Shown: positions 1-17,691, counted from the first letter of the stretch. The stretch: DNA of 24,981 nucleotides from a bacterium (GCA_030550175.1 JAUQPW010000089.1:1-24981), one strand, 5' to 3'. Made by a program: numbers and translations. The notes: generated by a model from the sequence alone, not told the origin.

Positions 1-70
1 ACCCCCCCACTCCCATACTCCCCCACTCCCATACTCCCCCACCCCCATACCTCCACACTCCCATACCCTC
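1..70. repeat. Pyrimidine-strand tandem-octamer repeat (ACTCCCAT/ACTCCCCC units), cut by the window edge. Same family as 7029-7121 and 13838-13896.
   Basis: Direct reading shows imperfect tandem units cactccca, tactcccc, cactccca, tactcccc, cacactccca. It lies immediately downstream of the minus-strand receiver gene stop at 74-76. The same motif recurs twice elsewhere in the window. Confidence 0.7.
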
Positions 71-73
71 ATT

Positions 74-475
74 TTATTGATCTGATTCTTCCAAAACCCA
101 TCGTACGATCTCAACGGCTTTATCTAGATTTAAGGGTTTAGAAATAAAATGCTCGGCTCCCGCACGTAAAGCCTCTTCAATCACTTCCTCATGGGAGATT
201 CCACTGATCAGAATAATGAGGGTATGAGGATTTATTCCCATAAAACGTCGGACCAGGGTAATTCCGTCCGTATCGGGTAAGGACATATCCATGGTAACAA
301 CGTCGGGTTTAAGTTCTTCAAAACGATGGAGAGCCTCCTCGCCCGACGTAGCTTCTCCAACGACTTCCCCACCCACCTGTTCTACCACCTTACTTAAGCT
401 TATACGCGCAAATCGGGAGTCGTCTACCAGGAGAAATCGAAATTTTTTTCCATCTTTTTTAAGAATCTCAGCCAT
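74..475 (-). CDS. cheY: CheY-like single-domain response regulator (receiver domain only)
   Basis: Translation FRFLLVDDSRFARISL...PDVVTMDMSLPDTDGITL...ISKPLN carries the DD acid pocket, the phospho-acceptor Asp in MDMSLPD, and a conserved Lys near the C-terminus. The ORF-track start at 493 is GTG; an in-frame ATG at 473-475 gives MAEILKKDGKKFRFLLVDD, which is the typical receiver N-terminal length. It lies about 25 nt downstream of the CheA stop on the same strand. Confidence 0.85.
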   Translation of the reverse strand: MAEILKKDGKKFRFLLVDDSRFARISLSKVVEQVGGEVVGEATSGEEALHRFEELKPDVVTMDMSLPDTDGITLVRRFMGINPHTLIILISGISHEEVIEEALRAGAEHFISKPLNLDKAVEIVRWVLEESDQ

Positions 476-500
476 AATTAGAGTATTCAGCACTCAGTAG

Positions 501-3500
501 CTAGTACTCTCGGTTATACATCTTGCCGATGAGGGCAGGTACATCCAAAATCAGAATCACCCGTCCGTCTCCAAGTTTGGAAGCACTGGAAACAATATCT
601 GTTTTGACAATCTTAGTATCCAAGGATTTAATAACCAATTCTTCTTTTTCTAAGGGTTGGTCCGTGACAATCCCTACTAATTCATCTCGTGCAACCCGTA
701 CCACCACTACAAATAACTTCTCATTCTGGATTTTAGGTTGAGGAACTCCCAAAATATCGTAAGGTCTCAGGAGGTGAATGACCTGACCTCTGAGTTGAAA
801 AACCTCCTGTTTTCCTATGATCTCGATGTTCTTTGTTGAAATTCTCAAGACTTCTACCACGAGAGATAAAGGAATGGCAAAAACGCGGTTCCCGATTTCC
901 AGCAGAAGGGCTTGAATAATGGCTAAAGTTAAAGGGAGTTTAACGATAAATCGGGTTCCTTTATTCAGTTGGCTTTCTACTTCTAAGGTACCATTAAGCT
1001 CTTCGATGACCTTACGAGCACTCTGGATTCCCGGACCAAACAAAAAGGAGCTTTCCTCACTTTCAGGAACGACTAATCCCCGATTAAAGAATACATTGAA
1101 AAAGTCAGAAATGGAGAGGTTTTCAGCTTCCTCGGGAGTGAAAAATTTATGTTGGATCGCTAAATTTTTCACCCGTACCAGGTCAGTTCCTCTCCCATCA
1201 TCGGAAATTTCGATAATAATTTGATTGCCGGCATGGTAAGAGTTGAGACTTACTCTACCTGTGGTCGGTTTACCCAGTTGGGCCCGTACAGAGGGAGGTT
1301 CGATTCCATATTCTATAACGCTTCGAAGAAGTTTTGTTAAAGGCTCCCCAATCAGATCCAGAATAGCTTTATCCAGTTCGGTGTGTTCTCCGGTTATTTC
1401 CAACTTCACTTCTTTACCTTTTTTTAGAGCCAGATCTCTAACCAGTCGAGGAAATCGTTTGAATACTACATCGATCGGCATCATGCGAACCTTCATGATA
1501 TTTTCTTGTAAGTTCAACAAATTTTTTCGAACCAACATGTTCGTCTTCATAAGCTGCTCGATCAAACGGGCTGTTTCTCCGGTAGGAAAAATAGAATTTA
1601 ACTTACTTAAACCCTGGGAAAGGGTCGCTCCTCCGATAACCAGTTCCCCAACCACATTCATGATTTCATCCAGCAGTTGATAATCTACACGTAAGGTTTT
1701 TTTAGCCGACGGTGTAGAAGTAAGGGGAGTATAGGAAGAGATTTCGAACTCCTCATCTACAGAATAGGAGGGCACAGGCTCAGAACCCGGTGAAAGGACT
1801 TCTACCCTACGGGTTTCGGATAAGGGGGGAAGTACAAAGGGAGATATACGAACAGCTTGAACAACTGCGGCTACTTTTCCCCGACGTTGGATCAACTCTT
1901 CAGATGCACTACTGGCCAGGATGAGTTGGAAGTGATTTGCTCTTTTTAATTCATTGCTCCCTAAAGGTGGGTTCACTTTGATAACCTCCCCCAGCCGGGA
2001 GAGCTTTCGAGTTACCATAAAAGCACCTGCAGAGTGCAGGGACCAATCGGGTGCAAATTCTATTTCTATTCGGAATACTTTTTTTCCTTTTTCTTGAGCT
2101 TCCTTGAGTTTTACTTCTTCATATCTAATCAGTTCAATACCTTCTTCCTGTTGATGAACCAGAGAGACGGCTGTTTCGGTTAAGGACCCTGTCACCAGTT
2201 GATTAATTTTTGTTAAAAGTGGCGTTAGATCCAGGGGGCTGGTTCCATCTGTTTTATAGTCATTGACCAATCTCCGAAGAGTATCCAGGCAATTAAAAAG
2301 AACGGTAATCGAACCCTGGGTAATAATTCCGTCAGATTTCTGAACGGCCTTAAGGGTCTCTTCCATATGGCGACTCAGGGAATTAATCTTTTCAAATCCG
2401 AGAAATCCCGAATTGCCTTTTAACGTGTGGAAGGCCGTTATAACATTTCTTAGAATATTTCGATCTCCAGGGGCTTTCTCAAGGGCCAGGATTCCTTTCT
2501 CCAGACCTTCCAGGATATCACCGGCCTCCTCGAAGAAAATTTCCAAAAATTCTTCATTTTCTTCTTCCTCCGCAACCCCCCCTTCACGGGTTATGAGAAC
2601 CAGCGAAGGATCTACAGCCTCCAACCATTCCGTTGTATACAATCTCTTTTCCCTAGGCATGGTGGAGATGATCCCGTTTTGAAACAGGAGCTCTCGAAAG
2701 GAAAGAAGCCCTATTTTAAAGAGGTTATCCATCTTCATGGAGTATTTATTGAGGGCCAGAATTTTCTCCAGCTCGATTTTATCAGCAGAAAGGGGCTCCG
2801 ATAAAATTGTGGCCGCTTCTTCTGGATTCTCGTTAATGAAATCTGTTGCCTTTTTAAAGGCCCGGATCAGAGCTTTAAGCGTGTCGGGATGTTGTTGAAG
2901 ATTCTCGTTCAAAACCATGAGAACACTCTGATCTACCAACCAGTTAATCTCTTCCTCATAGCCCGGTATGGCTGAACGGGAACCGGAGAAATAAAATTTA
3001 CCTCCTATGGCCTGGGCCCGGCTAGTCCAGGGTTCCCAACACGCTATCCCATCGACCTCTCCCCGTTGTAGCGCTTCTAACTGTTGAGCGGGAAGCAGGT
3101 CTACAAAGGTAACCCGCGTCAGATCTACTCCAAACTCCCGGGCCATACTCTGAAGGGCAATATAAACCGCGGCCCCTTTCGCCATTCCTATTTTCTTTCC
3201 CTCTAAATCCCTGGGAGTTACAATTCCAGAATCCTCCCGAATCACAACTTGCTGAGTTCCAGAAATATCTGCCAGAGGGGCCACAATTTTAACATCCAGG
3301 CCTCGATCCTGAAGAATGAGCGTGGTAACCGGAGTCTGGGTAAAGGCAAAAGGCTTCTCTTTGGCCTGAATCACTTCATCCGGCATTATGGTTCCAGAGG
3401 GAAGAAGTCGATATTCTACTTGTAGGCCTTCTTCATCAAAAAATCCCTTTTCTTTAGCTAATATCAACTGACTTGAAATGTTTGGATCTTTAACGCCATA

Positions 3501-3533
3501 AAGCTCGATTCTATCCACAACCCCATCCTCCAT
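501..3533 (-). CDS. cheA: CheA-family chemotaxis histidine kinase (1010 aa): N-terminal NMT1/SsuA-like substrate-binding domain, HPt (P1), dimerisation (P3), HATPase (P4) and C-terminal CheW-like (P5) domain
   Basis: The ATG start at 3531-3533 was verified. The N-terminal ~300 aa (VKIVAPLADISGTQQVVIRED...GKKIGMAKGAAVYIALQ...GEVDGIACWEPW) resemble ABC-type nitrate/sulfonate/bicarbonate periplasmic-binding (NMT1/SsuA) folds but have no signal peptide or TM segment. The HPt motif is ITAFHTLKGNSGFLGF, the dimerisation region is DYQLLDEIMNVVGELVI, the ATPase motifs are IEISDDGRGTD and GPGIQSARKVIEELNGTLEVESQLNKGTRF, and the CheW-like tail is RVFAIPLSLVVEVLRI...VVVVRVARDELVGIVTDQ. Confidence 0.85.
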   Translation of the reverse strand: MEDGVVDRIELYGVKDPNISSQLILAKEKGFFDEEGLQVEYRLLPSGTIMPDEVIQAKEKPFAFTQTPVTTLILQDRGLDVKIVAPLADISGTQQVVIREDSGIVTPRDLEGKKIGMAKGAAVYIALQSMAREFGVDLTRVTFVDLLPAQQLEALQRGEVDGIACWEPWTSRAQAIGGKFYFSGSRSAIPGYEEEINWLVDQSVLMVLNENLQQHPDTLKALIRAFKKATDFINENPEEAATILSEPLSADKIELEKILALNKYSMKMDNLFKIGLLSFRELLFQNGIISTMPREKRLYTTEWLEAVDPSLVLITREGGVAEEEENEEFLEIFFEEAGDILEGLEKGILALEKAPGDRNILRNVITAFHTLKGNSGFLGFEKINSLSRHMEETLKAVQKSDGIITQGSITVLFNCLDTLRRLVNDYKTDGTSPLDLTPLLTKINQLVTGSLTETAVSLVHQQEEGIELIRYEEVKLKEAQEKGKKVFRIEIEFAPDWSLHSAGAFMVTRKLSRLGEVIKVNPPLGSNELKRANHFQLILASSASEELIQRRGKVAAVVQAVRISPFVLPPLSETRRVEVLSPGSEPVPSYSVDEEFEISSYTPLTSTPSAKKTLRVDYQLLDEIMNVVGELVIGGATLSQGLSKLNSIFPTGETARLIEQLMKTNMLVRKNLLNLQENIMKVRMMPIDVVFKRFPRLVRDLALKKGKEVKLEITGEHTELDKAILDLIGEPLTKLLRSVIEYGIEPPSVRAQLGKPTTGRVSLNSYHAGNQIIIEISDDGRGTDLVRVKNLAIQHKFFTPEEAENLSISDFFNVFFNRGLVVPESEESSFLFGPGIQSARKVIEELNGTLEVESQLNKGTRFIVKLPLTLAIIQALLLEIGNRVFAIPLSLVVEVLRISTKNIEIIGKQEVFQLRGQVIHLLRPYDILGVPQPKIQNEKLFVVVVRVARDELVGIVTDQPLEKEELVIKSLDTKIVKTDIVSSASKLGDGRVILILDVPALIGKMYNREY

Positions 3534-5222: not shown

Positions 5223-7028
5223 ATGAGTTACCGTCGGTATTTTATAGTTTATTATCTGGTTAGTTTCCTGTCTTTTTTCCCCCTACAAAGTGCCGCTCAG
5301 GAGGATGATGGGGAGGTGGTTGTTAATTTTAAAGACAACCTTCCCCAGGAAGAGATTGAGAAAATTGCCCACAAGTATGGAATTCAGTTAACCTATAACA
5401 GCATTTTCTCAAAGCCGGAAGCCCTTACCCGATTTTCAAAGGCAGGGATGGATCCTGACACGCTTCAGAAACTCCTGCAAGCTTTAGCTGCAGAGTCTAC
5501 CGTTGAATATGTAGAACCTAATTATCTTTATCAAGCTTTTGAAATTCCCAATGATCCACTTTTTGATAAACAATGGAACATGAAGTTCATTCAGATGCCG
5601 GAAGCCTGGGATAAAACCCATGGAAAAGGGGTTATCGTGGCCGTTATCGATACGGGAGTTGCCTATGAAGATTATCAAGACAGAAAAGGTGTTTACCACC
5701 GGGTCCAAGATCTGGCAAACACTCAATTTACGGAAGGTTATGATTTTATCGATGATGATACCCATCCCAACGATGATAACGGTCATGGAACCCATGTAGC
5801 CGGAACCATTGCCCAGTCAACCAATAATGGGATTGGGGTGGCAGGAATAGCCTATGAAGCTACCATCATGCCGTTAAAAGTTTTGAACCGGTTTGGGTTC
5901 GGGAATATAGCCGATATTGCTGAAGCTATCCGATATGCAGCGGACCATGGTGTACAGGTTATCAATCTAAGTTTAGGGGGCTTTTTTCCCAGCAGAACTA
6001 TTCAAGAAGCCATGGCCTATGCCCATGATAAAGGCGTGACCCTGGTGTGTGCAGCCGGGAATTCAGGTCGTAGAGGTGTGAGTTTTCCGGCTTCCGATCC
6101 TCATTGTATAGGCATCTCTGCCCTGGGGCCGGATGGAACCCTGGCTCCCTATTCCAGTTACGGTCCGGAGATCGACCTGGCTGCACCGGGCGGAGATACC
6201 AGTAAGGGCATCGGTTATGGAATCCTTCAAAATACTATTGGATACATGGATCCAACCCGGGATGGTTATGAATATTTCCAGGGGACTTCCATGGCGGCAC
6301 CCCACGTGGCGGGTACGGCGGCTCTGATCATCTCCCTGGGGGTGAAAAATCCCGATGAAGTAGAGAAAATCCTCAAAGCCAGTGCAACCCGGCGGACCCA
6401 ACAAGGGGAGTCCCTTTCGAACACTATTACAGGAGAAAACCGGGATGAGAAATACGGCGCCGGACTCCTCAATGCAGCCGCTGCCGTCTCTTCCCTCCGA
6501 CCCGATATCTTTGTTCCGCAAACGGCGATCATACCCGTCAGATTAAAATATCTCCTGGTGGCGATCTTATTAGCCTGGATCTATTTTAAATTCCTTAGAG
6601 GTTTTCACCTGCCCAAGGGGCTTCCCAGACTTCTTTTCTGGCTTGGGTTCCTGTGGGCTTCCTCGGGACTTTTTTTCCTGAATTTTTTCCCCTTCCCCGA
6701 CCTATTAAGCAAGGGTATAACCCCCTTTGTCCAAGCTTTTCCAGATTTAGATTATCCTCTGTTGGGGAGGATTTCGGATTTAAACCCCTTGTTCCATAGC
6801 GCGGTCCTTCCCCTTCTTTTGATCATAACCTTGTTAAGTACAAAATCTCTCAGCCGTTTTGCCCTGGGCTTTACCCTGGGTCTGGCCGCTCATCTAGTGG
6901 TAGATGTTCTTCTAACTTCGGCAACGGTTGCTTATATTCCCGGAAATTTCCTGCTGGATAAAACCTGGCTTTTAGTGAATGCCCTTTTTTCCTTTTGGTT
7001 AGCTTACCTTGCGGGAAAACCCTCGTAG
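5223..7028 (+). CDS. Secreted S8 subtilisin-family serine protease with I9 propeptide, fused to a C-terminal ~5-helix integral-membrane domain
   Basis: The signal peptide is MSYRRYFIVYYLVSFLSFFPLQSAAQ. The catalytic triad motifs are VAVIDTGV (Asp), HGTHVAGTIA (His), NSGRRG (oxyanion region) and GTSMAAPHVAGTAALI (Ser). The C-terminal ~170 aa hold five hydrophobic stretches (YLLVAILLAWIYFKFL, LLFWLGFLWASSGLFFLNFF, VLPLLLIITLLS, FALGFTLGLAAHLVVDVLL, WLLVNALFSFWLAYLAG). Confidence 0.85.
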   Translation: MSYRRYFIVYYLVSFLSFFPLQSAAQEDDGEVVVNFKDNLPQEEIEKIAHKYGIQLTYNSIFSKPEALTRFSKAGMDPDTLQKLLQALAAESTVEYVEPNYLYQAFEIPNDPLFDKQWNMKFIQMPEAWDKTHGKGVIVAVIDTGVAYEDYQDRKGVYHRVQDLANTQFTEGYDFIDDDTHPNDDNGHGTHVAGTIAQSTNNGIGVAGIAYEATIMPLKVLNRFGFGNIADIAEAIRYAADHGVQVINLSLGGFFPSRTIQEAMAYAHDKGVTLVCAAGNSGRRGVSFPASDPHCIGISALGPDGTLAPYSSYGPEIDLAAPGGDTSKGIGYGILQNTIGYMDPTRDGYEYFQGTSMAAPHVAGTAALIISLGVKNPDEVEKILKASATRRTQQGESLSNTITGENRDEKYGAGLLNAAAAVSSLRPDIFVPQTAIIPVRLKYLLVAILLAWIYFKFLRGFHLPKGLPRLLFWLGFLWASSGLFFLNFFPFPDLLSKGITPFVQAFPDLDYPLLGRISDLNPLFHSAVLPLLLIITLLSTKSLSRFALGFTLGLAAHLVVDVLLTSATVAYIPGNFLLDKTWLLVNALFSFWLAYLAGKPS

Positions 7029-7121
7029 GAGGGCGGGAGGGTGGGAGTATGGGGGTGTGGGAGTATGGTGGGGAAATTCTCCCACACTTCCACACTCCCA
7101 TACTCCCACCCTCCCACACTT
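7029..7121. repeat. Inverted pair of the ACTCCCA-octamer repeat family forming a long imperfect hairpin. G-rich arm 7029-7073, 7-nt loop AAATTCT, C-rich arm 7081-7121. Probable terminator-type REP-like element downstream of the subtilase gene.
   Basis: The reverse complement of the 7081-7117 arm (GTGGGAGGGTGGGAGTATGGGAGTGTGG...) matches 7031-7052 (GCGGGAGGGTGGGAGTATGGG...) with few mismatches. The same repeat unit occurs at 1-70 and 13838-13896. Confidence 0.75.
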
Positions 7122-7131
7122 CTTTCTTAGA

Positions 7132-7353
7132 TTGACTCTTCGAGGAATTTTAAAGTTTCATCAACTTGGAACCCGATTCTGGGAACTTATTACCGATAGT
7201 GGAGATCATTACGAGTTGATCGGGGGTGATCCTGGTCTTTATCAAGATGGTGCCCGGGTTGTTGTAACTGGGCAAATACGAGAAGATTTAATGAGTGTGG
7301 GAAATATAGGGCCTATCTTTGAGGTAGATACCTTTAAACAGGAGGAAAAATAG
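7132..7353 (+). CDS. Possible small ORF (~73 aa, TTG start, no RBS) or remnant of a small beta-rich domain protein; the upstream part of the annotated 114-aa ORF is just the repeat element read in frame
   Basis: The C-terminal 55 aa (FWELITDSGDHYELIGGDPGLYQDGARVVVTGQIREDLMSVGNIGPIFEVDTF) have the look of a conserved small domain (Y-E-L-x-G-G ... G-A-R-V-x-V-x-G ... M-S-x-x-x-x-G-P). There is no ATG or GTG start and no SD; the only in-frame start is TTG at 7132. Confidence 0.2.
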   Translation: MTLRGILKFHQLGTRFWELITDSGDHYELIGGDPGLYQDGARVVVTGQIREDLMSVGNIGPIFEVDTFKQEEK

Positions 7354-7940: not shown

Positions 7941-9512
7941 TTAATCTCCCAGGACGATCTGAACGGTGCTTTTCTTTCGTCGCAATAGAAAAAGGAAGGG
8001 AAAGGTAATTATGATCAGAATTGCAATGAGCAGAAAGGCGTCTCGAAAGGAGAGGAGTAAAGCCTGTCGGGTTACGGTATGATCTAAGAGGTTCAGAGCG
8101 ATCTTACCCGAGGATTCTGGATTAATGCCTTTGGCCAGAAGTCCCTGTTCCAGTATTTGCAATCGTTGGGTAGTTAAAGGATTTAGAGGGTGGAGGTGTT
8201 CACTGAGGATGGATCGGTGAAAAATTTCCCTTTGTTTGAGAAAGGTGACGAGAATTGCGATCCCGAAACTCCCGCCGGTCTGGCGCATGAAGGTGTAAAT
8301 GCCTGAGGCACTGGCCATGTCTTTCTTTTCCAGGGTACTGAGGGCTGCTATACTCAGGGGAACAAACATAAAGCCGACTCCAATTCCTCGTAGGATCTGA
8401 GGAACGATCAGATCAGAGGTACCAATTTCCAGGGTAAACCGGGACATTTTGTAGAGACCCAGGCTAAAGGTACCTATACCCATGGCAATGACATATTGCG
8501 GAGAAATTCTGGCCATCAGTTTACCCGAAATAAACATGGCAATAGCGGTAGAGATGGAGCTGAGGAGGATCGCCTTTCCGGTCTGCCAGGCCGTGTAATT
8601 TAACAGGGTTTGTAAAAAAACCGGAAGCAGAAAGGTAGGTCCCATGAGTCCGACTCCTAAAAAGGTAGCGATCACAGTTCCGACCCAAAGAGAACGGTTG
8701 GTCAAAACCTTCAAGTTGACCGCAGGATGATCAATTCGAAGTTCCCACCAGACAAAGCTGATTAAAGCCAGCCCGGCTAAGAGGCTAAGTGTTTTAATTC
8801 CATTGGATTCGAACCAGTCTTTCCGTTCCCCCAGTTCCAGGATCACCTGCATACATCCAACGCCTATAGCCAGTAAAATAATCCCCAGGTAGTCTACCTG
8901 GGGAGCCGGGTTTTTAGAGTGGGTAGAGTCTTGTAGAAAGAAATAGGCCAGCAGCAGGGCAAGGCCCCCGACGGGGATGTTGATATAAAAGATCCAGGGC
9001 CAATTATAGTTATCGGTAATCCAACCTCCTAAGGTTGGTCCCAACGTGGGACCGACCATGGTGCCTACTCCAAAAGCCGCCATAGCTCCCCCCTGTTCTT
9101 TAGGTGGAAAGGTTTCCATGAGAAGGGATTGGGAACTGGGAATAAGGGCCCCTCCTCCCATTCCTTGAATGATTCGGAAGAAAACGAGGGCTTCGACACT
9201 CCAGGCAATTCCACAAAAAAAAGAGGCAACGGTAAAGATTCCAATGGATAATGCTAAAAATCTTTTTCGTCCTAACCAGGCCGTAAACCACCCTGTTAAA
9301 GGAAGGACGATGACATTGGCAATAATGTAACCTGTAACCACCCAGTTGATTTCGTCCAGAGTCGCTCCCAGATTACCCATCATATGGGGTAATGCTACAT
9401 TTACGATGCTCACATCGATAGCTTGCAGGAGGGTTCCCAAAACGGCTATCAAGATGATAATCCATTTGTGCTGAGGTTTCACAGGAGATGAAAGGCAAAA
9501 ATCAAAAGGCAA
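7941..9512 (-). CDS. emrB: DHA2-family MFS multidrug efflux transporter (EmrB/QacA type, 14-TMS class)
   Basis: Motifs IDVSIVNVALPHMMGNLGA, GRKRFLALSIGIFTVASFFCG and IIQGMGGGALIPSSQSLL are present with many TM helices, and the gene sits immediately downstream of an HlyD/EmrA gene. The ORF-track start at 9512 is TTG; an in-frame GTG at 9480-9482 is an alternative start. Neither has an SD. Confidence 0.85.
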   Translation of the reverse strand: MPFDFCLSSPVKPQHKWIIILIAVLGTLLQAIDVSIVNVALPHMMGNLGATLDEINWVVTGYIIANVIVLPLTGWFTAWLGRKRFLALSIGIFTVASFFCGIAWSVEALVFFRIIQGMGGGALIPSSQSLLMETFPPKEQGGAMAAFGVGTMVGPTLGPTLGGWITDNYNWPWIFYINIPVGGLALLLAYFFLQDSTHSKNPAPQVDYLGIILLAIGVGCMQVILELGERKDWFESNGIKTLSLLAGLALISFVWWELRIDHPAVNLKVLTNRSLWVGTVIATFLGVGLMGPTFLLPVFLQTLLNYTAWQTGKAILLSSISTAIAMFISGKLMARISPQYVIAMGIGTFSLGLYKMSRFTLEIGTSDLIVPQILRGIGVGFMFVPLSIAALSTLEKKDMASASGIYTFMRQTGGSFGIAILVTFLKQREIFHRSILSEHLHPLNPLTTQRLQILEQGLLAKGINPESSGKIALNLLDHTVTRQALLLSFRDAFLLIAILIIITFPFLFLLRRKKSTVQIVLGD

Positions 9513-9561
9513 AAGGCGAAAGGGCAGATGAAAGCTTTCTTTTACCTTTCGCCTTTTGCCT
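9507..9561. repeat. Perfect 17-bp-stem hairpin (arms 9507-9523 and 9545-9561, 21-nt loop) built from tandem CAAAAGG units, lying exactly at the emrA stop / emrB start junction
   Basis: Upstream tandem copies aaaggcaaaaatcaaaaggcaaaaggcgaaagg are followed by the inverted copy cctttcgccttttgcc. The left arm contains the emrB TTG at 9510-9512, and the right arm ends 2 nt before the emrA stop codon at 9564-9566. Confidence 0.7.
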
Positions 9562-9563
9562 GT

Positions 9564-10892
9564 TTACTTTGCACGGGCACCGCTGATATCGATGGTTACA
9601 AATACAGACATCCCGGGTCGGATGGGATATTCGGGATCTCCCTCGATGGTGATTCGCACGGGGACCCGTTGAACAACCTTAGTAAAGTTACCGGTGGCAT
9701 TATCGGGAGGTAGAAGGGAAAATTTCGCACCGGTTGCAGGGCTGATACTTTCTACTTTTCCTTTAAATACCTTTCCGGGATAGGTATCCACCGTAAATTC
9801 CACCGGCTGACCAACACGGACATACTCCAGTTGGGTTTCCTTCAAATTTGCAACAATCCAGACCTCATCGGGAATCAGGGCCATTATAGGCTGACCTACA
9901 TTGACCCTTTCTCCGACTTCCACCGATCTCTTCCCGATAATCCCATCTACCGGGGCTCTAATTTCCGTGTAGGAGAATCTGAGCAGAGCTGCAGCCAGAT
10001 TCGCTTCGGCCTGGGCCAACTCGGCTTCCAAAGATTTGACTTCCTGACCTTTCATTTCCGTCTCGGTATGACCCGTTTGGGCCAGAACTATCTGGGCTTC
10101 GGTCTGTTTAATCTGGTTTTTAAGAGACTCAATCTTTGCTGCAGCGACCCGTTGAGAAGCCAGGGAGGCTTCATAATTAGACCGGGCTACATTATAGTCT
10201 GAGATCGCTGCATCGAGTTGTTGCTGAGGAATGACGCCTTTAGCCTGGAGTTGCTCTAACCGCTTTCGATCCAGTTCCGCTTTTTCCATTTGAGCTTTAT
10301 ACCCTAGGGTTTCTTTCTCTATACGAGCTAACTCCGCTTGAGCCGTTGCAAGACTTTTTCTCATGGCTTCTGCTTGTGCCCTGGCCTCTGTGATTTTTGC
10401 ATCTGTACGATTTTGCTCAAGGGGTACTGACAGACGCGCAGATGCTAATTTGGCTTTGATAACCTCAACGGCTGCCTTCGCTTGATCTACTTCAATAGCT
10501 AAAGGTTTGGTGTTCAATTGTACAAGCAATTGATCCGCTTTGACACGCTGGTTTACATCCACCAAAACCCGCTCTACAACCCCGGCAGTCCTGGGACTGA
10601 TGGTGATTATTCGACCCTCTACCTGGGCGTTATCAGTAGTTTCATGATTTAAGTAAAAGTAGTAAAGCTTAACCCCATAAGCTACCCCGATAATAAGCAA
10701 AATAAGTACAAGTCCGTAAAGGACCATACGTTTAACGTTTTTTGTAAAAGAAATCTTCCGTTTGATAAGGGGTTGCGAAATCGGATAGTTTAAATTTCCA
10801 TTAGGCCCAGGTAAGGTACGGGGGGGTTCTTTTTCTTCGATTTTATAACTCTTTTCGGGATCGTTAGCGGATATTGTGTCGTCGTCATTCAT
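9564..10892 (-). CDS. emrA: HlyD-family membrane fusion protein (EmrA-like periplasmic adaptor) with N-terminal TM anchor
   Basis: The ATG at 10890-10892 was verified. The TM anchor is MVLYGLVLILLIIGVAYGV, the lipoyl/biotinyl-like region is AQVEGRIITISPRTAGVVERVLVDVNQRVKADQLLVQLN, a long coiled coil follows, and the C-terminal beta domain is VPVRITIE. Confidence 0.85.
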   Translation of the reverse strand: MNDDDTISANDPEKSYKIEEKEPPRTLPGPNGNLNYPISQPLIKRKISFTKNVKRMVLYGLVLILLIIGVAYGVKLYYFYLNHETTDNAQVEGRIITISPRTAGVVERVLVDVNQRVKADQLLVQLNTKPLAIEVDQAKAAVEVIKAKLASARLSVPLEQNRTDAKITEARAQAEAMRKSLATAQAELARIEKETLGYKAQMEKAELDRKRLEQLQAKGVIPQQQLDAAISDYNVARSNYEASLASQRVAAAKIESLKNQIKQTEAQIVLAQTGHTETEMKGQEVKSLEAELAQAEANLAAALLRFSYTEIRAPVDGIIGKRSVEVGERVNVGQPIMALIPDEVWIVANLKETQLEYVRVGQPVEFTVDTYPGKVFKGKVESISPATGAKFSLLPPDNATGNFTKVVQRVPVRITIEGDPEYPIRPGMSVFVTIDISGARAK

Positions 10893-10903
10893 ATCCTAAA
10901 ACA

Positions 10904-10979
10904 TAAAACCTAAAACCTAAAACGTAAAGAGTTAAACCTTACCTCCATTTAATTTTTACATTTTAGGTTTTAGGTTTTA
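10904..10979. repeat. 25-bp inverted repeat with 1 mismatch (arms 10904-10928 and 10955-10979, 26-nt loop) made of tandem CTAAAAC heptamers. It lies between the L,D-transpeptidase stop and the emrA start.
   Basis: taaaacctaaaacctaaaacgtaaa ... tttacattttaggttttaggtttta. The right arm overlaps the transpeptidase stop codon at 10977-10979. The left arm begins 11 nt from the emrA ATG. Confidence 0.75.
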
Positions 10980-11909
10980 TCTCAAGATTTCTTCCAGGAA
11001 AATAGAATAATGAAGCTGCTCCTTCTCTTTATCTAAGAGGAGCCGTTTAGCAGGAGGTCGACTGAGTTTTTTTCGAATGTATTGCTCGATCGACTGGAAC
11101 TGAGCTTCTGCAGTATCAATATACCATTTCAGCCGAGAGAAGTCTATCCTCCTTAAATCAATACGCTGCTGTTGCAAGATTTTTAAAACCTCATCAAAAT
11201 AATCCAATGGTTTATGGTAAATGTTTGCATGGAGGACCAACTCTTCCCGCGGTTCGTTATACTCAACGATTTCATAGCGGATTGAAATGGGCACAGCACG
11301 AGGGAATCTACCGGATCTGATCTCAGGTGCCAGGTAATCATATAAAATCTGCATATCTTCCCTATCGATTCGAATACAACCATTAGAACTGGGAGCCCCG
11401 ACGGTATACCAGTCGGTCGTCTGATGAAGTACAAACTGCTCATAGACTTCCTGGGTCTCGTCACTGAGAATAGACATGAATATCGACTTCATATCCTTCG
11501 GCATGGGAATCTTGATGGGTTTAAGGGTTTTTTTATCAAAGGTGTAAGAGTACTCAATTACCTTTCCAACCAGGTCTTCCGGATTTTGATCCCCATACCG
11601 AAAAACAACTCCGGTTGCCTTGGCATAAAGATATCCTTCCCCGGTTGGAGTCTGGTTAGAAAATTCCGTTCCCCTTCCAACCCCAATAGGAATAGTTAAG
11701 GTTCGCCAGGAATCGCCTCCATCCGGTATATAAAGAACCAGCCGATAAGCCGGAATGTTAATAACCACCTGCTGATTGAAGTTTTTTCCGGAGTTTTCAT
11801 ACGGAAAATCTTCAAGTTTACTGTAAACTACATTGGGAGAAAAAAGATAAATTAAAAAACTTAAGATTAAAAATTGCTTGAACCTCTTCTTTATTTTGCC
11901 TGTTTCCAT
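10977..11909 (-). CDS. Secreted L,D-transpeptidase (YkuD/ErfK domain) family protein
   Basis: The signal peptide is METGKIKKRFKQFLILSFLIYLFSPNVVYS. The catalytic motif HQTTDWYTVGAPSSNGCIRIDREDM matches the H...S-x-G-C-I-R signature of L,D-transpeptidases. The ATG start was verified. Confidence 0.7.
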   Translation of the reverse strand: METGKIKKRFKQFLILSFLIYLFSPNVVYSKLEDFPYENSGKNFNQQVVINIPAYRLVLYIPDGGDSWRTLTIPIGVGRGTEFSNQTPTGEGYLYAKATGVVFRYGDQNPEDLVGKVIEYSYTFDKKTLKPIKIPMPKDMKSIFMSILSDETQEVYEQFVLHQTTDWYTVGAPSSNGCIRIDREDMQILYDYLAPEIRSGRFPRAVPISIRYEIVEYNEPREELVLHANIYHKPLDYFDEVLKILQQQRIDLRRIDFSRLKWYIDTAEAQFQSIEQYIRKKLSRPPAKRLLLDKEKEQLHYSIFLEEILR

Positions 11910-12586
11910 AGGCTACAAAAAATATCAACACAATAGGCCACACTCTACAGCTACACAGCCTATCCTAAACCCGGAGATTCCATAGGGAGGAACTTCTCTT
12001 TTAATCCCAGGGTCTTCTACAGGCTCTGTAGCTAAATCAAACCCATTTTTACAAAAACGTATCTATATCCATTTAGTAGGTGGAAGAAGAGACATCCCGC
12101 CGGTCCTCATACGCGCCAGAATAAGGATGTTAGCCCCAGCGGGGCGACCTGTTTAACTGTTCACCCCTGAGGAGCTTTTCAGCTTAACCCGGTGCGTATC
12201 TCCTGGCCCCTTTGAGGGGGATGGGAGTGTTCAGACAAAAAAGTAACACCTACTAACTTGTTACAGTTACTACAAAAATAAAACACCTTGACTTCTCAAT
12301 AAGATGCTGCTAGCCTGATTGGCTAGGGTAAAAAACTACATTAATAAATTAATTCTTTTTTCTAAAAACGTTCAATCTATCCTTATGAAAATTCTTGTCG
12401 TCTGTGGGAGTGTAGATAAAGCCCTTTACCCCAGATCATCAAAGAAAAGTACGGAATCACGTGTAGGAAGGGAAACTTTACCAAAAATTATGGGATCCAA
12501 TCCGCTTTTCCTTGACAAGAAGAGAGATTGTTAAATTTTATAGCTGAGGGGGTTAAAGTGGAATATTTTTTAACAAATCGGGAAAG

Positions 12587-13789
12587 ATGAGCGAAATTAT
12601 GACGACGAGTCAAACTTACATGATTTATATACCCGGCCAGAATCGCCTAGAGGAAGGAAATAAGCTGCTTTCTTTTGTAAAGGAACTCAAGAAGATTCAA
12701 ACGGAAAAAAACATTTCTATTCTTATCGAAATGACCCTTCGGCAGGAAGGAGAGGTAAACCGATATCAGATTCGGCAGGGGCAAATCCATCCTATTTCAA
12801 CCCTTCAAGAAAGTTCTTCAGGAGATGGAGAAGGTCTGGGTAATTTTTTAAAATGGAGTCAGGAGCACTATCCTGCAAATCATTATATTCTGGTCATCTG
12901 GAATCACGGAAATCCCTGGAATATCCAGGAGTTCAAATCTGAACCTTTGTATCGAATTCCCTTTCCTTATGAGGTGGTCGCTCGGGCTATCTTTTTAAGT
13001 ACGGCGAAAACCATCCTGACCCAACAGGAACTCAGGGAAACCGTTTATGCGGATCGACAGGCGAGCCTTCGGGATTTCTTAGATATCCTTGAACTCAAAA
13101 AGGCCCTGCAGGGATCGGGGATCCAATTGGGGATCTTGGGACTGGATGGCTGTCTGCCAAACCTGTTGGAAGGGATTAATGAGGTCAAAGGAGCGGTACA
13201 TTTTGTGATTGGTTCAGAGGATGGGGCATGGAAAAAACCCTGGGTACAGGGAGAAATATTCGAAATACCGGCGAAGCAGCCAGATCTCTCCCTTGAAGAT
13301 TTGGCGAGAACCTGGATAAAGCAGCAGAGAGGACCCCAGGGAAAAAAGCCATCTTTATTAAACCTGAGTCATCTTGATCCGGTGGTCCGATCGTTAGATC
13401 GTTTAGCCCGGATCCTTAAAACCCATCTGTTTCAAATGTATGGATTCTTTTCCCAGGTTCGGAGAGAAGTTCGAGTATTTTCCAATCCCAACTACGCCGA
13501 TCTATATGATCTGGCAACTCTTTTAAAAAAGGTAGAAAATCGGGATGACCTTAAAGAAGAGACGGAAAAACTTCTAATTGGAATAAACGCTCTGGTCTTT
13601 GAAGACTCTAAAACAGAGGACACCTTCGATACCCGAAGGGTAGGGATCTTTTTCCCAGAAAATAAGAGAATCTTAACTCCTTATTACCAAAAGCTAGATT
13701 TTGCCGAAACCTGCCCAAATTGGATAGAATTTCTAAAGGCTTACCTGGAGTTTGTACCGACTCAACATGTCCAGCGAGCTCGAATTTAA
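12587..13789 (+). CDS. Clostripain-like (peptidase family C11) cysteine peptidase homologue, cytoplasmic (no signal peptide)
   Basis: The N-terminal architecture (YMIYIPGQNRLEE ... ISILIEMTL ... NRYQI ... SGDGEGLGNFLKWSQEHYPANHYILVIWNHGNPW) follows the C11 pattern YMxxDNNL...V.V.D...TRRY...GDP.TL..FI.W....A.RY.LI.W.HG.GW, which places the catalytic His in WNHG. The hydrophobic strand plus Cys GIQLGILGLDGCLPNLLEG corresponds to the DAC(L/M) catalytic Cys block. Confidence 0.6.
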   Translation: MSEIMTTSQTYMIYIPGQNRLEEGNKLLSFVKELKKIQTEKNISILIEMTLRQEGEVNRYQIRQGQIHPISTLQESSSGDGEGLGNFLKWSQEHYPANHYILVIWNHGNPWNIQEFKSEPLYRIPFPYEVVARAIFLSTAKTILTQQELRETVYADRQASLRDFLDILELKKALQGSGIQLGILGLDGCLPNLLEGINEVKGAVHFVIGSEDGAWKKPWVQGEIFEIPAKQPDLSLEDLARTWIKQQRGPQGKKPSLLNLSHLDPVVRSLDRLARILKTHLFQMYGFFSQVRREVRVFSNPNYADLYDLATLLKKVENRDDLKEETEKLLIGINALVFEDSKTEDTFDTRRVGIFFPENKRILTPYYQKLDFAETCPNWIEFLKAYLEFVPTQHVQRARI

Positions 13790-13837: not shown

Positions 13838-13896
13838 TCCTCCTCTTCTTCCCCATACTCCCACACTCCCACACTTCCCCACTCCCATCTTTCCTT
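13838..13896. repeat. Third copy of the ACTCCCA-octamer pyrimidine-strand repeat, between the convergent C11-peptidase and encapsulin genes
   Basis: tcctcctcttcttccccatactcccacactcccacacttccccactcccatctttcc contains the same ATACTCCCACACTCCC units as 1-70 and 7081-7121. Confidence 0.7.
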
Positions 13897-13899
13897 ACT

Positions 13900-14709
13900 T
13901 CAGGCAGAAATAATACAAATAGCCTCTGGAGTTCTGATATCCGGGACCAGACTTTCAGAGATAGTAAATTCATAAAAAACCTCTCCAAATCCGGAGAATG
14001 AGGTCATCAGATCCTGACCCAGAATAATCTGGTTACCGTTAACTGTATCTAAAAGTACTCCTTTGTTTTGAAGCACAGGAGTTTTAAAAATCCCTTCTGT
14101 AACCAGAGAACGTAGGTTTTCGATTTGGAGAACATCGCTGTCTTTATACAATCGAAACAGGCTGTTATAAAGAGGTGAAGCCAGAACCAGGGCATAGGGT
14201 CCCGGATATCCTGCTTTATCCAGTTGATTGGCAGCTTGAATCACATCTTCAATGGCTTGACCTACCTGACTCCAATCCCCTAACGGGATCTTATGGACAC
14301 CGGGTGTGTTAAGAATACCCGTAATAGAGAGGCTTTCGTAACCGAAAAATACCAGCTCATCCTCTTTAAGGATACAGTTTTTAGCGGCCTGAAATGCTGC
14401 ATCCAGGTCTAGAGGTTGGTGATAAGTTTCGTAAGCCTCAATCATGCTGATACTTAAAGAAAAGGAACTATAGATCTGGGGTATAGGAAGGGTAGGACTA
14501 CAGAGAATTTTAGCTGCTAGGGGGAGCCCTGCTTCTGCTATCCGCTCTGTTTTCGAAACGAGGGCCTTAAAACCAAGCCCGAGGGGGCCCTCTACATCCA
14601 GTAATTTTCTCCCCACCAATAAACTTTTCGCCGTGGAAACAACCAGTTCATCAATTTTCTCCCAAACCTTTGAGCTAATTGGGGCAGCTTCTCGATTGAG
14701 ATATTTCAT
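13900..14709 (-). CDS. Family-1 encapsulin nanocompartment shell protein (HK97 fold; linocin M18/CFP29-like)
   Basis: The length, the N-terminus MKYLNREAAPISSKVWEKIDE...GRKLLDVEGP and the internal ILGQDLMTSF parallel Thermotoga maritima encapsulin ([21 protein letters not shown]...GRKFVDVEGP...ILGQDLSIGY). An AAGGAG SD lies 11 nt upstream and overlaps the stop of the preceding ferritin-like gene. Confidence 0.85.
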   Translation of the reverse strand: MKYLNREAAPISSKVWEKIDELVVSTAKSLLVGRKLLDVEGPLGLGFKALVSKTERIAEAGLPLAAKILCSPTLPIPQIYSSFSLSISMIEAYETYHQPLDLDAAFQAAKNCILKEDELVFFGYESLSITGILNTPGVHKIPLGDWSQVGQAIEDVIQAANQLDKAGYPGPYALVLASPLYNSLFRLYKDSDVLQIENLRSLVTEGIFKTPVLQNKGVLLDTVNGNQIILGQDLMTSFSGFGEVFYEFTISESLVPDIRTPEAICIISA

Positions 14710-14714
14710 AACAA

Positions 14715-15104
14715 TTAACTCTCCTTTCTCTGCTTTAAGCTTCCGACGGTTTTAAGAATAGAAGTTCGAACGTTCTCTGAGGATGGTCCGGGTTTACTGT
14801 TCTTCATTTCTAGGGTCTCTATTTGTGTAATTTCTCTTTCACTAAAGAGATAGGTCCGCAAATGTCCTTCAAAAGTCGGATTATTTCGTCGAATCCACTC
14901 CAGGACCATGGCAGCGTGTTCCATTTCTTCATCTCGATTATGAGCCAGAATTCTTCTCAGTTCTTCATCTGTACATACATCTACCCGCTGTTGGTACCAA
15001 TCAATAGCTTCTAACTCCTCTATAAGAGACTTAATCGCTCTGGACATATTCAGAGTTTTCTCACTGATTTTTTCATAAGGTTCATGCCAACTTTCCGATC
15101 CCAT
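14715..15104 (-). CDS. Encapsulated ferritin-like protein (EncFtn/Flp cargo) with C-terminal cargo-loading peptide
   Basis: The ferritin-like di-iron motifs are EELEAIDWYQQRVDVCTDEELRRILAHNRDEEMEHAAMVLEWIRR (E...E..H pattern). The C-terminal tail ...SILKTVGSLKQRKES contains the TVGSLK-type encapsulin targeting consensus. The gene is immediately upstream of, and translationally coupled to, the shell gene. The ATG and an AGGAGA SD were verified. Confidence 0.85.
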   Translation of the reverse strand: MGSESWHEPYEKISEKTLNMSRAIKSLIEELEAIDWYQQRVDVCTDEELRRILAHNRDEEMEHAAMVLEWIRRNNPTFEGHLRTYLFSEREITQIETLEMKNSKPGPSSENVRTSILKTVGSLKQRKES

Positions 15105-16768: not shown

Positions 16769-16840
16769 CCTCTTTCATAGATCTAAAATCCAAGGTCCAG
16801 AGCTCTGATGGCTCTGGATTCTGGACTTTAGACTTTGAGA

Positions 16841-17620: not shown

Positions 17621-17645
17621 TATCCCTAAGTCTAAAGTCCCAGGT

Positions 17646-17686
17646 CCAAAGTCCCAAGATCGGAGACTTTGGGCTTGGGACTTTGG
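17646..17686. terminator. 13-bp-stem hairpin (17646-17658 / 17674-17686) built from tandem GTCCCA(A/G)G units, 5 nt downstream of the argG stop. Putative terminator or REP-like element.
   Basis: ccaaagtcccaag atcggagactttggg cttgggactttgg. The flanking sequence agtcccaggtccaaagtcccaag is itself a tandem repeat. There is no clean U-run, so intrinsic-terminator function is uncertain. Confidence 0.4.
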
Positions 17687-17691
17687 GCTGG

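Follow-up and report, generated by a model that had tools for sequence, protein, structure and literature searches.

The window, by which we mean the whole 24,981-nt stretch of bacterial DNA that was analysed, contains three arrays of YACTCCC units with a period of 8 or 16 nt, located at 1-70, 7029-7121, and 13838-13896. The features at and around these arrays are as follows.

1-70, minus strand: array copy 1, sense sequence (GGGAGTRT / GGGGGTGG)n, its first base 5 nt past the cheY-like stop
74-493, minus strand: response-regulator receiver (REC/CheY-like) gene, stop TAA at 74-76 abutting copy 1
501-3533, minus strand: CheA-type kinase gene
5223-7028, plus strand: subtilase (S8 and DUF5942) gene, stop TAG at 7026-7028, 6 nt ahead of the first GGGAGGGT unit
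7029-7073, plus strand: G-rich 5' arm of a hairpin, predicted paired bases 7035-7064 and 7068-7073
7074-7079, plus strand: hairpin loop AAAUUC, from RNA fold prediction
7080-7123, plus strand: C-rich 3' arm of the hairpin, predicted paired at 7080-7115, then a pyrimidine tail CACACTTCTTTCTTAG
7132-7353, plus strand: DUF5818 gene of 73 residues, TTG start 9-10 nt past the hairpin and without a Shine-Dalgarno sequence
12587-13789, plus strand: C11 peptidase gene, convergent with the encapsulin gene
13838-13896, minus strand: array copy 3, core at 13855-13886, sense sequence TAA-GGAAAGAT-GGGAGTGGGGAAGTGTGGGAGTGTGGGAGTATGGGG with five G tracts
13900-14709, minus strand: encapsulin shell gene, stop at 13900-13902 abutting copy 3

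Tandem Repeats Finder reported repeats of period 8 and period 16 at 1-68, and of period 8 at 7042-7068, 7079-7120, and 13852-13887. The heptamer ACTCCCA occurs 15 times in the window, compared to 3.5 +/- 1.5 times in shuffled sequence (15 or more in 0 of 100 shuffles), and 10 of these 15 matches fall inside the three sites. Similarly, the two-unit pattern CYACTCCCAYACTCCC, searched with up to 3 mismatches, produced 19 matches against 0.59 expected, with all but one of them (18/19) inside the three sites. These results bear out an earlier reading of the window, made from the sequence alone, in which three copies built from imperfect tandem octamer units were placed at these positions, and the cheY, subtilase, C11-peptidase, and encapsulin assignments made there for the adjoining genes were correct. 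Copy 1 is clipped by the edge of the window; in another assembly of the same locus (L001) it continues for at least 31 further repeat bases, to a total of at least 101 nt.

When read on the sense strand of the adjoining gene, all three arrays take the form (GGGAGTRT)n and begin approximately 0-10 nt past the stop codon of that gene. The anchoring genes are cheY and encapsulin on the minus strand and the subtilase gene on the plus strand, with sense-strand junctions of TAA-AATGA-GGGTATGGGAGTGT... at cheY, TAA-GGAAAGAT-GGGAGTGG... at encapsulin, and TAG-GAGGGC-GGGAGGGT... at the subtilase gene. It had been noted previously that the arrays are C-rich on the plus strand except at 7029-7073, and they are as described, but this is because of the orientation of the genes rather than a property of the element. 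The sequence-only reading had missed that the G-rich strand is the sense strand and that the array begins at the stop codon. For the array at 7029-7121, the true next gene in the 3' direction is DUF5818, and given the position of its start the hairpin fills the intercistronic spacer, inside an apparent operon consisting of the subtilase gene, then DUF5818, and then DUF697.

The array at 7029-7121 is an inverted repeat with 42-nt arms that are 86% complementary, and as RNA it is predicted to form a stem of 36 bp between 7035-7073 and 7080-7115, with an energy of -82.6 kcal/mol (z = -9.9), as its initial description as a long inverted-repeat hairpin had it. For the lone arrays, fold prediction returned no significant canonical structure: copy 3 reached -19.4 kcal/mol compared to -16.9 +/- 4.8 in shuffles, and copy 1 only -0.3 kcal/mol without G-quadruplexes (G4), but -40.7 kcal/mol with G4 allowed. 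Canonical G4 motifs (at least 4 tracts of three or more G, loops of up to 7 nt) lie at 7031-7055 on the plus strand and at 7097-7115, 13860-13886, and 20-46 on the minus strand, so that four of the five such motifs in the 25-kb window fall inside the arrays; the G-rich 5' arm of the hairpin (7029-7073) also holds GGGCGGGAGGGTGGG, a G4 motif with 1-nt loops. In the G4 energy model of ViennaRNA, the lone G-rich stretches score between -36 and -41 kcal/mol. Four units in a row would read r(GGGAGUAU)4 as RNA. The G-quadruplex potential proposed earlier is thus upheld in these predictions, while the triplex formation proposed alongside it is unlikely, as the strands are only ~60-75% purine or pyrimidine.

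The window was also found to contain other hairpins in the same kind of position. At least four other stop codons are followed by hairpins composed of other 7-8-nt tandem units, as listed here.

9505-9562, minus strand: tandem-unit hairpin after the HlyD stop
10893-10988, minus strand: tandem-unit hairpin from the YkuD stop to the HlyD start, -38.7 kcal/mol, z = -7.3
16775-16838, minus strand: tandem-unit hairpin after the HpcH stop
17630-17690, minus strand: tandem-unit hairpin after the argG stop

Classical terminators with a GC stem and a U-tract, by comparison, were not enriched in the window (23 against 19.2 expected). Taken together, these observations imply that tandem-repeat hairpins are seemingly a normal post-cistron structure in this organism, and the ACTCCCA/GGGAGT family appears to be the G-rich member of the set found in the window. 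No Rfam family matched the window at its gathering score, and the sub-threshold matches were generic miRNA-precursor hairpins only, leading us to reject assignment to a known RNA family.

Three independent assemblies of this locus are interrupted within the arrays. The L001 contig starts inside the copy-1 array, and the L003 and L004 contigs both end inside the 7029-7121 hairpin, which is what would be expected of a multi-copy repeat in short-read assembly. The three window sites are members of a dispersed multi-copy repeat family, and to this extent the proposal of a genome-wide REP/MITE-like family stands; its second half, the likeness to REP or MITE elements, does not. A mobile element of the REP/REPIN or MITE type, with a transposase copying the hairpin into 3' intergenic sites, would account for the dispersal, for the assembly breaks, and for the one copy in hairpin form, and GTAG is present at 7025-7028. 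Moreover, in relatives, small repeated insertions and a true REP-like palindrome break up the arrays. We nevertheless consider this origin highly improbable. The window copies and more than 200 other arrays have nothing in common beyond the 8-nt unit, which occurs in a different number and order at every site, and GTAG is not a conserved head, being missing at copies 1 and 3. A search of the sequences flanking hairpins for TA, TAR, and TTAA found no consistent target-site duplication; the window's TAG...TAG and the TAA...TAA of the relative L128 resemble duplications, but the hairpins of L062, L011, and L088 are without any. There is also no conserved cargo, as an all-against-all BLAST comparison of inter-arm regions matched only a single locus that had been sampled twice, and none of the 19 ORFs scanned in the window, representing 25 kb of the genome, contained a transposase Pfam family. 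The window sites are therefore dispersed G-rich octanucleotide simple-sequence repeats and not copies of one mobile element.

The behaviour of orthologous arrays, which change gradually between relatives rather than showing fixed-length presence or absence, is a further argument against a mobile element. Syntenic contigs were compared from relatives whose subtilase is 90% (L128), 78%, 73%, and 72% identical. At the 3' end of the subtilase gene, the hairpin is kept in L128 with different units and with arms that are still complementary (-82.8 kcal/mol, z = -6.9), and its G arm contains an insertion of ~45 nt. A long hairpin of the 7029-7121 type is absent from this position in the 72-78% relatives, where the spacer is 0-11 nt with no hairpin (72% and 78%) or 69 nt with an ordinary small hairpin (73%). 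At the 3' end of cheY, L128 has a shorter array and L130 and L133 have none, while in L132 the sequence has been replaced and the position kept, with a different heptamer hairpin, (GTGAYRA)5/(TYRTCAC)5. In the spacer between C11 and encapsulin, the array is conserved in L122 but split by a 48-nt insertion carrying a REP-like palindrome. Related genomes, to which the sequence-only reading had pointed as a check, thus reveal arrays gained, lost, resized, or replaced at the same spacers, and the pattern, as judged from these syntenic sequences, is one of in-situ birth, resizing, and replacement rather than insertion of a fixed element.

To determine the position of arrays relative to genes, a long ORF was defined as one of at least 100 codons that ends no more than 40 nt upstream of the array. 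Among the matches listed for genome loci, a long-ORF stop preceded 52 of 111 G-oriented arrays compared to 15 of 110 C-oriented arrays, with 6.4% for random positions. An independent replicate from JGI metagenome contigs, comprising 120 loci matching a three-unit pattern for which less than one chance match is expected (an estimate rather than a computed value), gave 78/159 for G-oriented and 13/152 for C-oriented arrays, with 7.0% for random positions. The same rule was therefore observed in both samples, where 47-49% of G-oriented but only 9-14% of C-oriented arrays follow a stop, against 6-7% at random. The placement at gene 3' ends that had been read from the window holds for all three copies and for these two public samples, in which further copies were found and G-oriented arrays favour stops.

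In genome loci, the distance from stop to array had a mode of 3-10 nt. The first full unit is preceded by a degenerate leader unit, RRAAGTRT, and stop triplets peak 11-12 nt ahead of the first full unit, directly before this leader; when the leader is counted, arrays start 0-10 nt past the stop. Typical junctions read TAAGGAAAGTAT followed immediately by GGGAGTAT, or have TAGGAAAGTAT or TGAAGAAAGTAT directly before the array. The upstream ORFs are genuine and diverse, with 131 Pfam families in 94 proteins, and a link of the arrays to one gene family was rejected, as no family was dominant or represented by more than 4 of the 94 upstream proteins. Where two inverted arrays were neighbours within 250 nt, the G arm came first in 22 and 26 pairs in the two samples, respectively, and the C arm in none. 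This 48:0 order means that transcripts arriving from both directions would meet a G arm first, and where the flanking genes converge, each arm has a stop codon next to it, at a distance of 3-17 nt. In ~37-43% of array contexts, the next gene downstream is convergent. Convergent gene pairs usually make up a smaller share in bacteria, and such an excess would fit the ends of transcription units. The number of tracts with three or more G had a mode of 4 in both samples, to be read with the fact that the search patterns themselves required 2-3 perfect units, and this mode may partly be an ascertainment effect. A test for the C-rich arm preceding start codons was uninformative, given that random positions scored 30%.

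These data bear on whether the arrays are simply a neutral by-product of slippage-prone replication that tolerates 7-8-nt microsatellites, with their position reflecting where they do no harm. Many unrelated 7-8-nt tandem families share the same spacers, length and sequence turn over rapidly between relatives, and array edges are degenerate, as in ordinary microsatellites. In addition, an origin by polymerase slippage has been proposed for heptamer repeats in the literature (PMC4692102). However, neutral arrays should sit anywhere within a spacer, whereas those described here are anchored to the stop with 13-307 nt left free downstream. Nor would neutrality lead one to expect the strict G-arm-first polarity or the strand difference in stop adjacency, the four-tract mode differs from the monotonic decay that would be anticipated, and arm complementarity survives changes on both sides. 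While slippage may well supply the variation, a purely neutral account is in our view rather unlikely.

It is also conceivable that the active strand is the C-rich one, in which case (AYACUCCC)n RNA, being G-free and YC-rich, would serve as a Rho rut site that stops antisense or convergent read-through. Rho prefers C-rich, G-poor, unstructured RNA, and the C11 transcript would carry copy 3 as C-rich RNA, since on the plus strand this copy is a 60-nt G-free C-rich tract located 49 nt beyond the C11 stop; convergent contexts are, moreover, common. Against this, the positional anchor is the gene that reads the G strand and not the C strand, and the C arm is base-paired in hairpin copies. Furthermore, arrays occur in cyanobacteria (L038, L097, and L112), which to our knowledge lack Rho, and analogous G-rich heptamers are abundant in Nostoc. 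These points make a Rho site quite unlikely.

The orientation of the arrays could alternatively reflect a co-transcriptional R-loop or G-loop, with a G4 on the displaced strand that arrests RNA polymerase, which would amount to a terminator with neither a hairpin nor a protein factor. For the gene reading into the array, the non-template strand is in every case the G-rich one, the array begins where ribosome cover ends, and four or more G tracts are favoured. In E. coli, transcription of G-rich DNA is known to produce G-loops, and termination that depends on R-loops is known in eukaryotes. The proposal is, however, entirely inferential, the other tandem-repeat hairpins of the window hold the same positions without G tracts, and the hairpin copies would compete with G4 formation, such that we regard it as very unlikely.

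To survey the distribution of the arrays, one genome per GTDB species (596 Gb) was scanned with the 15-nt pattern ACTCCCAYACTCCCA, yielding at least 117 loci. Of these listed loci, 78 carry at least 3 in-register units and were taken as true arrays, while the remaining 39 are isolated matches that were read as chance, given that ~2,000 chance matches are estimated (though not computed) for a 15-nt pattern in 596 Gb. By record title, the array loci among the matches listed belong to Bacteroidota (33), Chloroflexota (13), Armatimonadota (10), Verrucomicrobiota (4), Cyanobacteriota (4), Lentisphaerota (3), Acidobacteriota (3), Rhodothermota (2), Planctomycetota (1), Gemmatimonadota (1), and Neomarinimicrobiota (1), with 3 unclassified. 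Arrays are thus present in at least 10 phyla, and this distribution is indicative only. Many arrays occur in single genomes such as Armatimonadota OY970325.1 and Bacteroidota CAVTJH010000003.1 / OY969813.1, and culturable carriers include a Chitinophagaceae/Puia relative, Aquimarina, and Chthonomonas. Among the matches listed, none of the ~11 loci from Pseudomonadota, Desulfobacterota, Bacillota, and Actinomycetota carried an array. Phage as a vector was rejected, with only 4 matches of the three-unit pattern in 2.9 million viral contigs. A cyanobacterial origin of the window, which would make the arrays STRR repeats proper, was likewise rejected: the window has no HIP1 sites, the nearest named relatives of ArgG are from Tectomicrobia and Latescibacteria, and those of the subtilase from KSB3/Vecturithrix.

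The recurrence of one unit in many phyla is what would be expected if the array had a conserved partner, and it is possible to envisage a tandem mRNA platform for a trans-acting factor such as the anti-Shine-Dalgarno sequence, a CsrA-like GGA binder, or an RRM or cold-shock-type protein. Each unit includes GGAG and GGA as well as an RUG triplet maintained at the R position, so that every unit presents GGGAG followed by AUG or GUG. Shine-Dalgarno sequences of the AGGAG type are used by the organism itself, one of them lying ahead of the subtilase start, and protein binding has been proposed by MacGregor for TAACTGA repeats (PMC4679880). On the other hand, the motifs are sequestered in the stem of hairpin copies, and alternation between A and G at the R position is the commonest type of mutation in any case. 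Bacteroidota, which account for 33 of the 78 array loci among the matches listed, largely do without Shine-Dalgarno pairing. A binding platform accordingly carries only a very slight probability in our estimation.

A search of the literature for the repeat sequence itself matched only unrelated primers, but several known systems are comparable. The closest is that of Rehm et al. 2015 (PMC4692102), who described G-rich heptamer repeats, GGGAATC in Xanthomonas and GGGGAYT in Nostoc, that are intergenic, lie within 50 bp of a stop on the coding strand, and are rare between divergent genes. According to the same study (PMC4692102), four units are preferred, G4 formation was seen in vitro, most of the repeats are transcribed, a given locus can differ between close relatives, and no regulatory role was found. 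The arrays described here resemble these heptamers in being tandem repeats of a 6-9-nt G-rich unit, intergenic, with the G-rich strand being the coding strand near a stop, in having inverted pairs able to form stem-loops and neighbouring genes of no particular class, and in differing in length and sequence between close relatives at one locus. They differ in having an octamer unit, GGGAGTRT, that resembles the heptamers only in its G tract, in having hosts that are different and far broader in range (at least 10 phyla), and in being anchored more tightly to the stop, at 0-10 nt. The G-arm-first polarity (48:0) was not reported for the heptamers. We take the Nostoc GGGGAYT repeat to be STRR1, one of the cyanobacterial STRR heptamers, given as CCCCAGT, that were reportedly described by Mazel et al. 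in 1990. As with STRR repeats, the arrays are composed of short tandem units dispersed in non-coding DNA, often after genes, with several families per genome; STRR units, however, are 7 nt long and defined in heterocystous cyanobacteria, whereas here the unit is an octamer and the host of the window is not a cyanobacterium.

Other comparisons are less close in sequence. REP, BIME, and REPIN elements of enterobacteria and pseudomonads are likewise dispersed, located at 3' ends or between cistrons, and hairpin-forming, and REP hairpins stabilise upstream mRNA, as at malE-malF in E. coli, so that the REP hairpin offers the best functional analogy for the hairpin at 7029-7121. REPs are, however, palindromes of 20-40 nt with a family consensus and a GTAG head that are mobilised by RAYT, while the arms here consist of tandem arrays that vary from site to site and agree only in their unit, and no link to a transposase was found. 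The TAACTGA heptamer direct repeats of Beggiatoaceae, cyanobacteria, and Bacteroidetes (MacGregor 2015, PMC4679880) are similar in being one short intergenic unit found in distant phyla with no evident transfer route, in having contigs that end in repeats, and in close relatives lacking the array at the same spacer. Unlike the present arrays, they lie mostly just upstream of starts in forward orientation, are not G-rich, and have no stop anchor. As in intrinsic terminators, the hairpin at 7029-7121 is a stable stem-loop just after a gene that is followed by a pyrimidine- or U-rich stretch, and many hairpin copies have A-rich sequence before them and U-rich sequence after them (GAAAGUAU...AUACUUUC). 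It departs from them in its stem of 36 bp instead of the usual 5-14 bp, its weak and interrupted U-tract, and its intercistronic location, and lone arrays have no hairpin; with its stem and a tail of CACACUUCUUUCUUAG, it was not called by a consensus terminator scan. Finally, paired tandem octanucleotide sites are reported in the genome paper of Geobacter metallireducens, where no role is assigned to them. The octamer with its wide spread over phyla is therefore new, while the repeat class itself has already been published.

Our best functional guess is still that of a terminator or stabiliser, as the sequence-only reading had proposed, in which the octamer arrays would be a simple-sequence repeat family retained where the 3' untranslated region begins because the transcript folds there and acts as a barrier at its 3' end. 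Judged from predicted folds and position, we give this explanation about an even chance of being correct. Arrays would arise, change length, and vanish in 3' spacers through replication slippage, and in inverted arrays the complementarity of the arms would be held by template switching, selection, or both. We infer that transcription of the 3' untranslated region opens with the array, where a lone array, with at least four G3 tracts and 5-nt loops, would have the potential to form an RNA or DNA G-quadruplex, and an array joined to an inverted C-rich array would fold into a very long hairpin, as predicted at 7035-7115 (36 bp, -82.6 kcal/mol). Such structures could make RNA polymerase pause or terminate, keep out 3'-to-5' exonucleases, or do both, and the long duplex could serve as an RNase III processing site. 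The barrier would thereby define and stabilise the mRNA of the upstream cistron, in analogy with REP/BIME hairpins in E. coli operons. When folded, the hairpin brings the subtilase stop (7026-7028) and the TTG start (7132) within ~15 nt of each other across its base, which may be why such an insertion is accepted at a position where one relative has a spacer of only 11 nt.

Some features of the window count against the barrier acting as a terminator. The tail of the hairpin is only CUUCUUUCUU, without a proper U-tract, the 36-bp stem is far longer than that of a normal intrinsic terminator, and the hairpin lies inside an apparent operon, where a strong terminator would cut off the downstream genes. 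For the lone arrays, which have no canonical fold, any function would rest wholly on G4 formation. The analogous heptamers, for their part, showed no regulatory role (PMC4692102). Additionally, a barrier function alone leaves unexplained both the near-zero distance to the stop and the use of one unit in many phyla. A more specific idea is that (GGGAGTRT)n is a sequence-defined post-stop signal in at least 10 phyla that acts as the ribosome stops, with a G4, an R-loop/G-loop, or a conserved factor ending or marking the transcript; the G-rich nascent RNA or non-template strand would then be exposed at the leading edge of the terminating ribosome. We think this unlikely to be correct. If true, it would represent a form of hairpin-free termination or 3'-end definition not recognised before, in phyla whose terminators are poorly understood, and would also explain the function of STRR-type repeats, which has been puzzling since 1990.

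Repeats of G-rich 7-nt units near stops, among them STRR1 (Nostoc) and GGGAATC (Xanthomonas), have been on record for decades, but no function has been assigned to them. The octamer family extends such stop-adjacent repeats to little-studied phyla, including Bacteroidota, Chloroflexota, Armatimonadota, Acidobacteriota, the Verrucomicrobiota/Lentisphaerota/Planctomycetota group, and others. It also sharpens the positional rule, in that the array starts at the stop and is G-rich on the sense strand, and adds the polarity of inverted pairs. In practical terms, the arrays break short-read metagenome assemblies and mark gene ends and strands. Should the folded barrier prove to have a function that is only structural and redundant with ordinary hairpins, the family would be a modest extension of known biology. 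The anchoring to stops, the 48:0 polarity, and the spread across phyla provide concrete predictions for reporter assays and 3'-end mapping in carriers that can be cultured.

Several minus-strand intergenic stretches of the window are occupied by hairpins whose arms are built from tandem units other than the octamer (GGGAGTRT)n:

17630-17690, minus strand: hairpin of short tandem units (CCCAAAGT)/(ACTTTGGG), past the argG stop.
16775-16838, minus strand: post-cistron hairpin of short tandem units, past the HpcH stop (-32 kcal/mol).
10893-10988, minus strand: (CCTAAAA)n/(TTTTAGG)n hairpin filling the entire spacer, which runs from the end of YkuD (final codons and stop, 10977-10979) up to the start codon of HlyD (10892).
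9505-9562, minus strand: (GGCRAAA)n/(TTTYGCC)n hairpin immediately past the HlyD stop (9564-9566), ahead of the MFS transporter start.

The inverted heptamer arrays upstream of HlyD fold at -38.7 kcal/mol (z = -7.3), and the hairpin past argG at -33.9 kcal/mol, compared to -19.3 +/- 3.4 in shuffles. The first arm is the C-arm in the argG hairpin and the purine-rich arm in that following HlyD.

Further tandem families were observed at loci from other assemblies. At the cheY 3' end of L132, a syntenic relative with 72% identity, a (GTGAYRA)5-loop-(TYRTCAC)5 hairpin (955-1035) stands in place of the octamer array, and its neighbouring genes are convergent. L114 carries (GCGTAAA)n, and L117 carries (AAGAGTAT)n. 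A second octamer family, (CNGYCAAC)n, frequently comes after the G-rich array at Bacteroidota loci; its complement, GTTG..., is reminiscent of octanucleotide sites that occur in pairs in Geobacter metallireducens:

L069 ~1252-1320, L008, L076, L096 and L098: (CNGYCAAC)n, with examples CCGCCAAC and CGGTCAAC.

Two gene regions in the window also deserve mention:

501-3533, minus strand: CheA-type histidine kinase with an N-terminal NMT1/THI5-like periplasmic-binding-type domain.
13900-15104, minus strand: encapsulin shell gene and upstream EncFtn-like cargo gene, convergent with the C11 (clostripain-family) peptidase gene.

The kinase architecture is unusual and is kept in all syntenic relatives. 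The encapsulin/EncFtn-like cargo/C11 peptidase arrangement is kept in the relative L122/L128. The stretch at 11910-12586 presents 680 nt without any ORF of at least 80 aa; at the equivalent position, the 90%-identity relative carries a gene with 2-thiouridine desulfurase/DUF1722 domains and, as a second gene, a 153-aa ORF. Within this stretch lie two isolated TGGGAGTGT units (12220-12228 and 12403-12411), possibly array relics or seeds.

The arrays of relatives contain insertions:

L128 (90%-identity relative) 1-20 (reverse complement) and 7088-7135: ~45-nt module with GCYAGTTACTTTCTAAATGA, likewise present in L129.
L122/L123 ~5500-5560, aligned to window 13838-13850: 48-nt insertion within the orthologous array between the C11 peptidase and encapsulin genes.

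Inside the 48-nt insertion is a classical REP-like palindrome, GTAGGGGCGATGCATGCGTCGCCCCTAC, and the array of a further locus, L058, is adjoined by a palindrome resembling it (GTAGGGGCGACC...). The ~45-nt module interrupts G-rich arrays at two separate loci of L128, its orientation is identical at both, and the end of the L128 contig falls within it. This module may represent a small insertion element that targets G-rich arrays.
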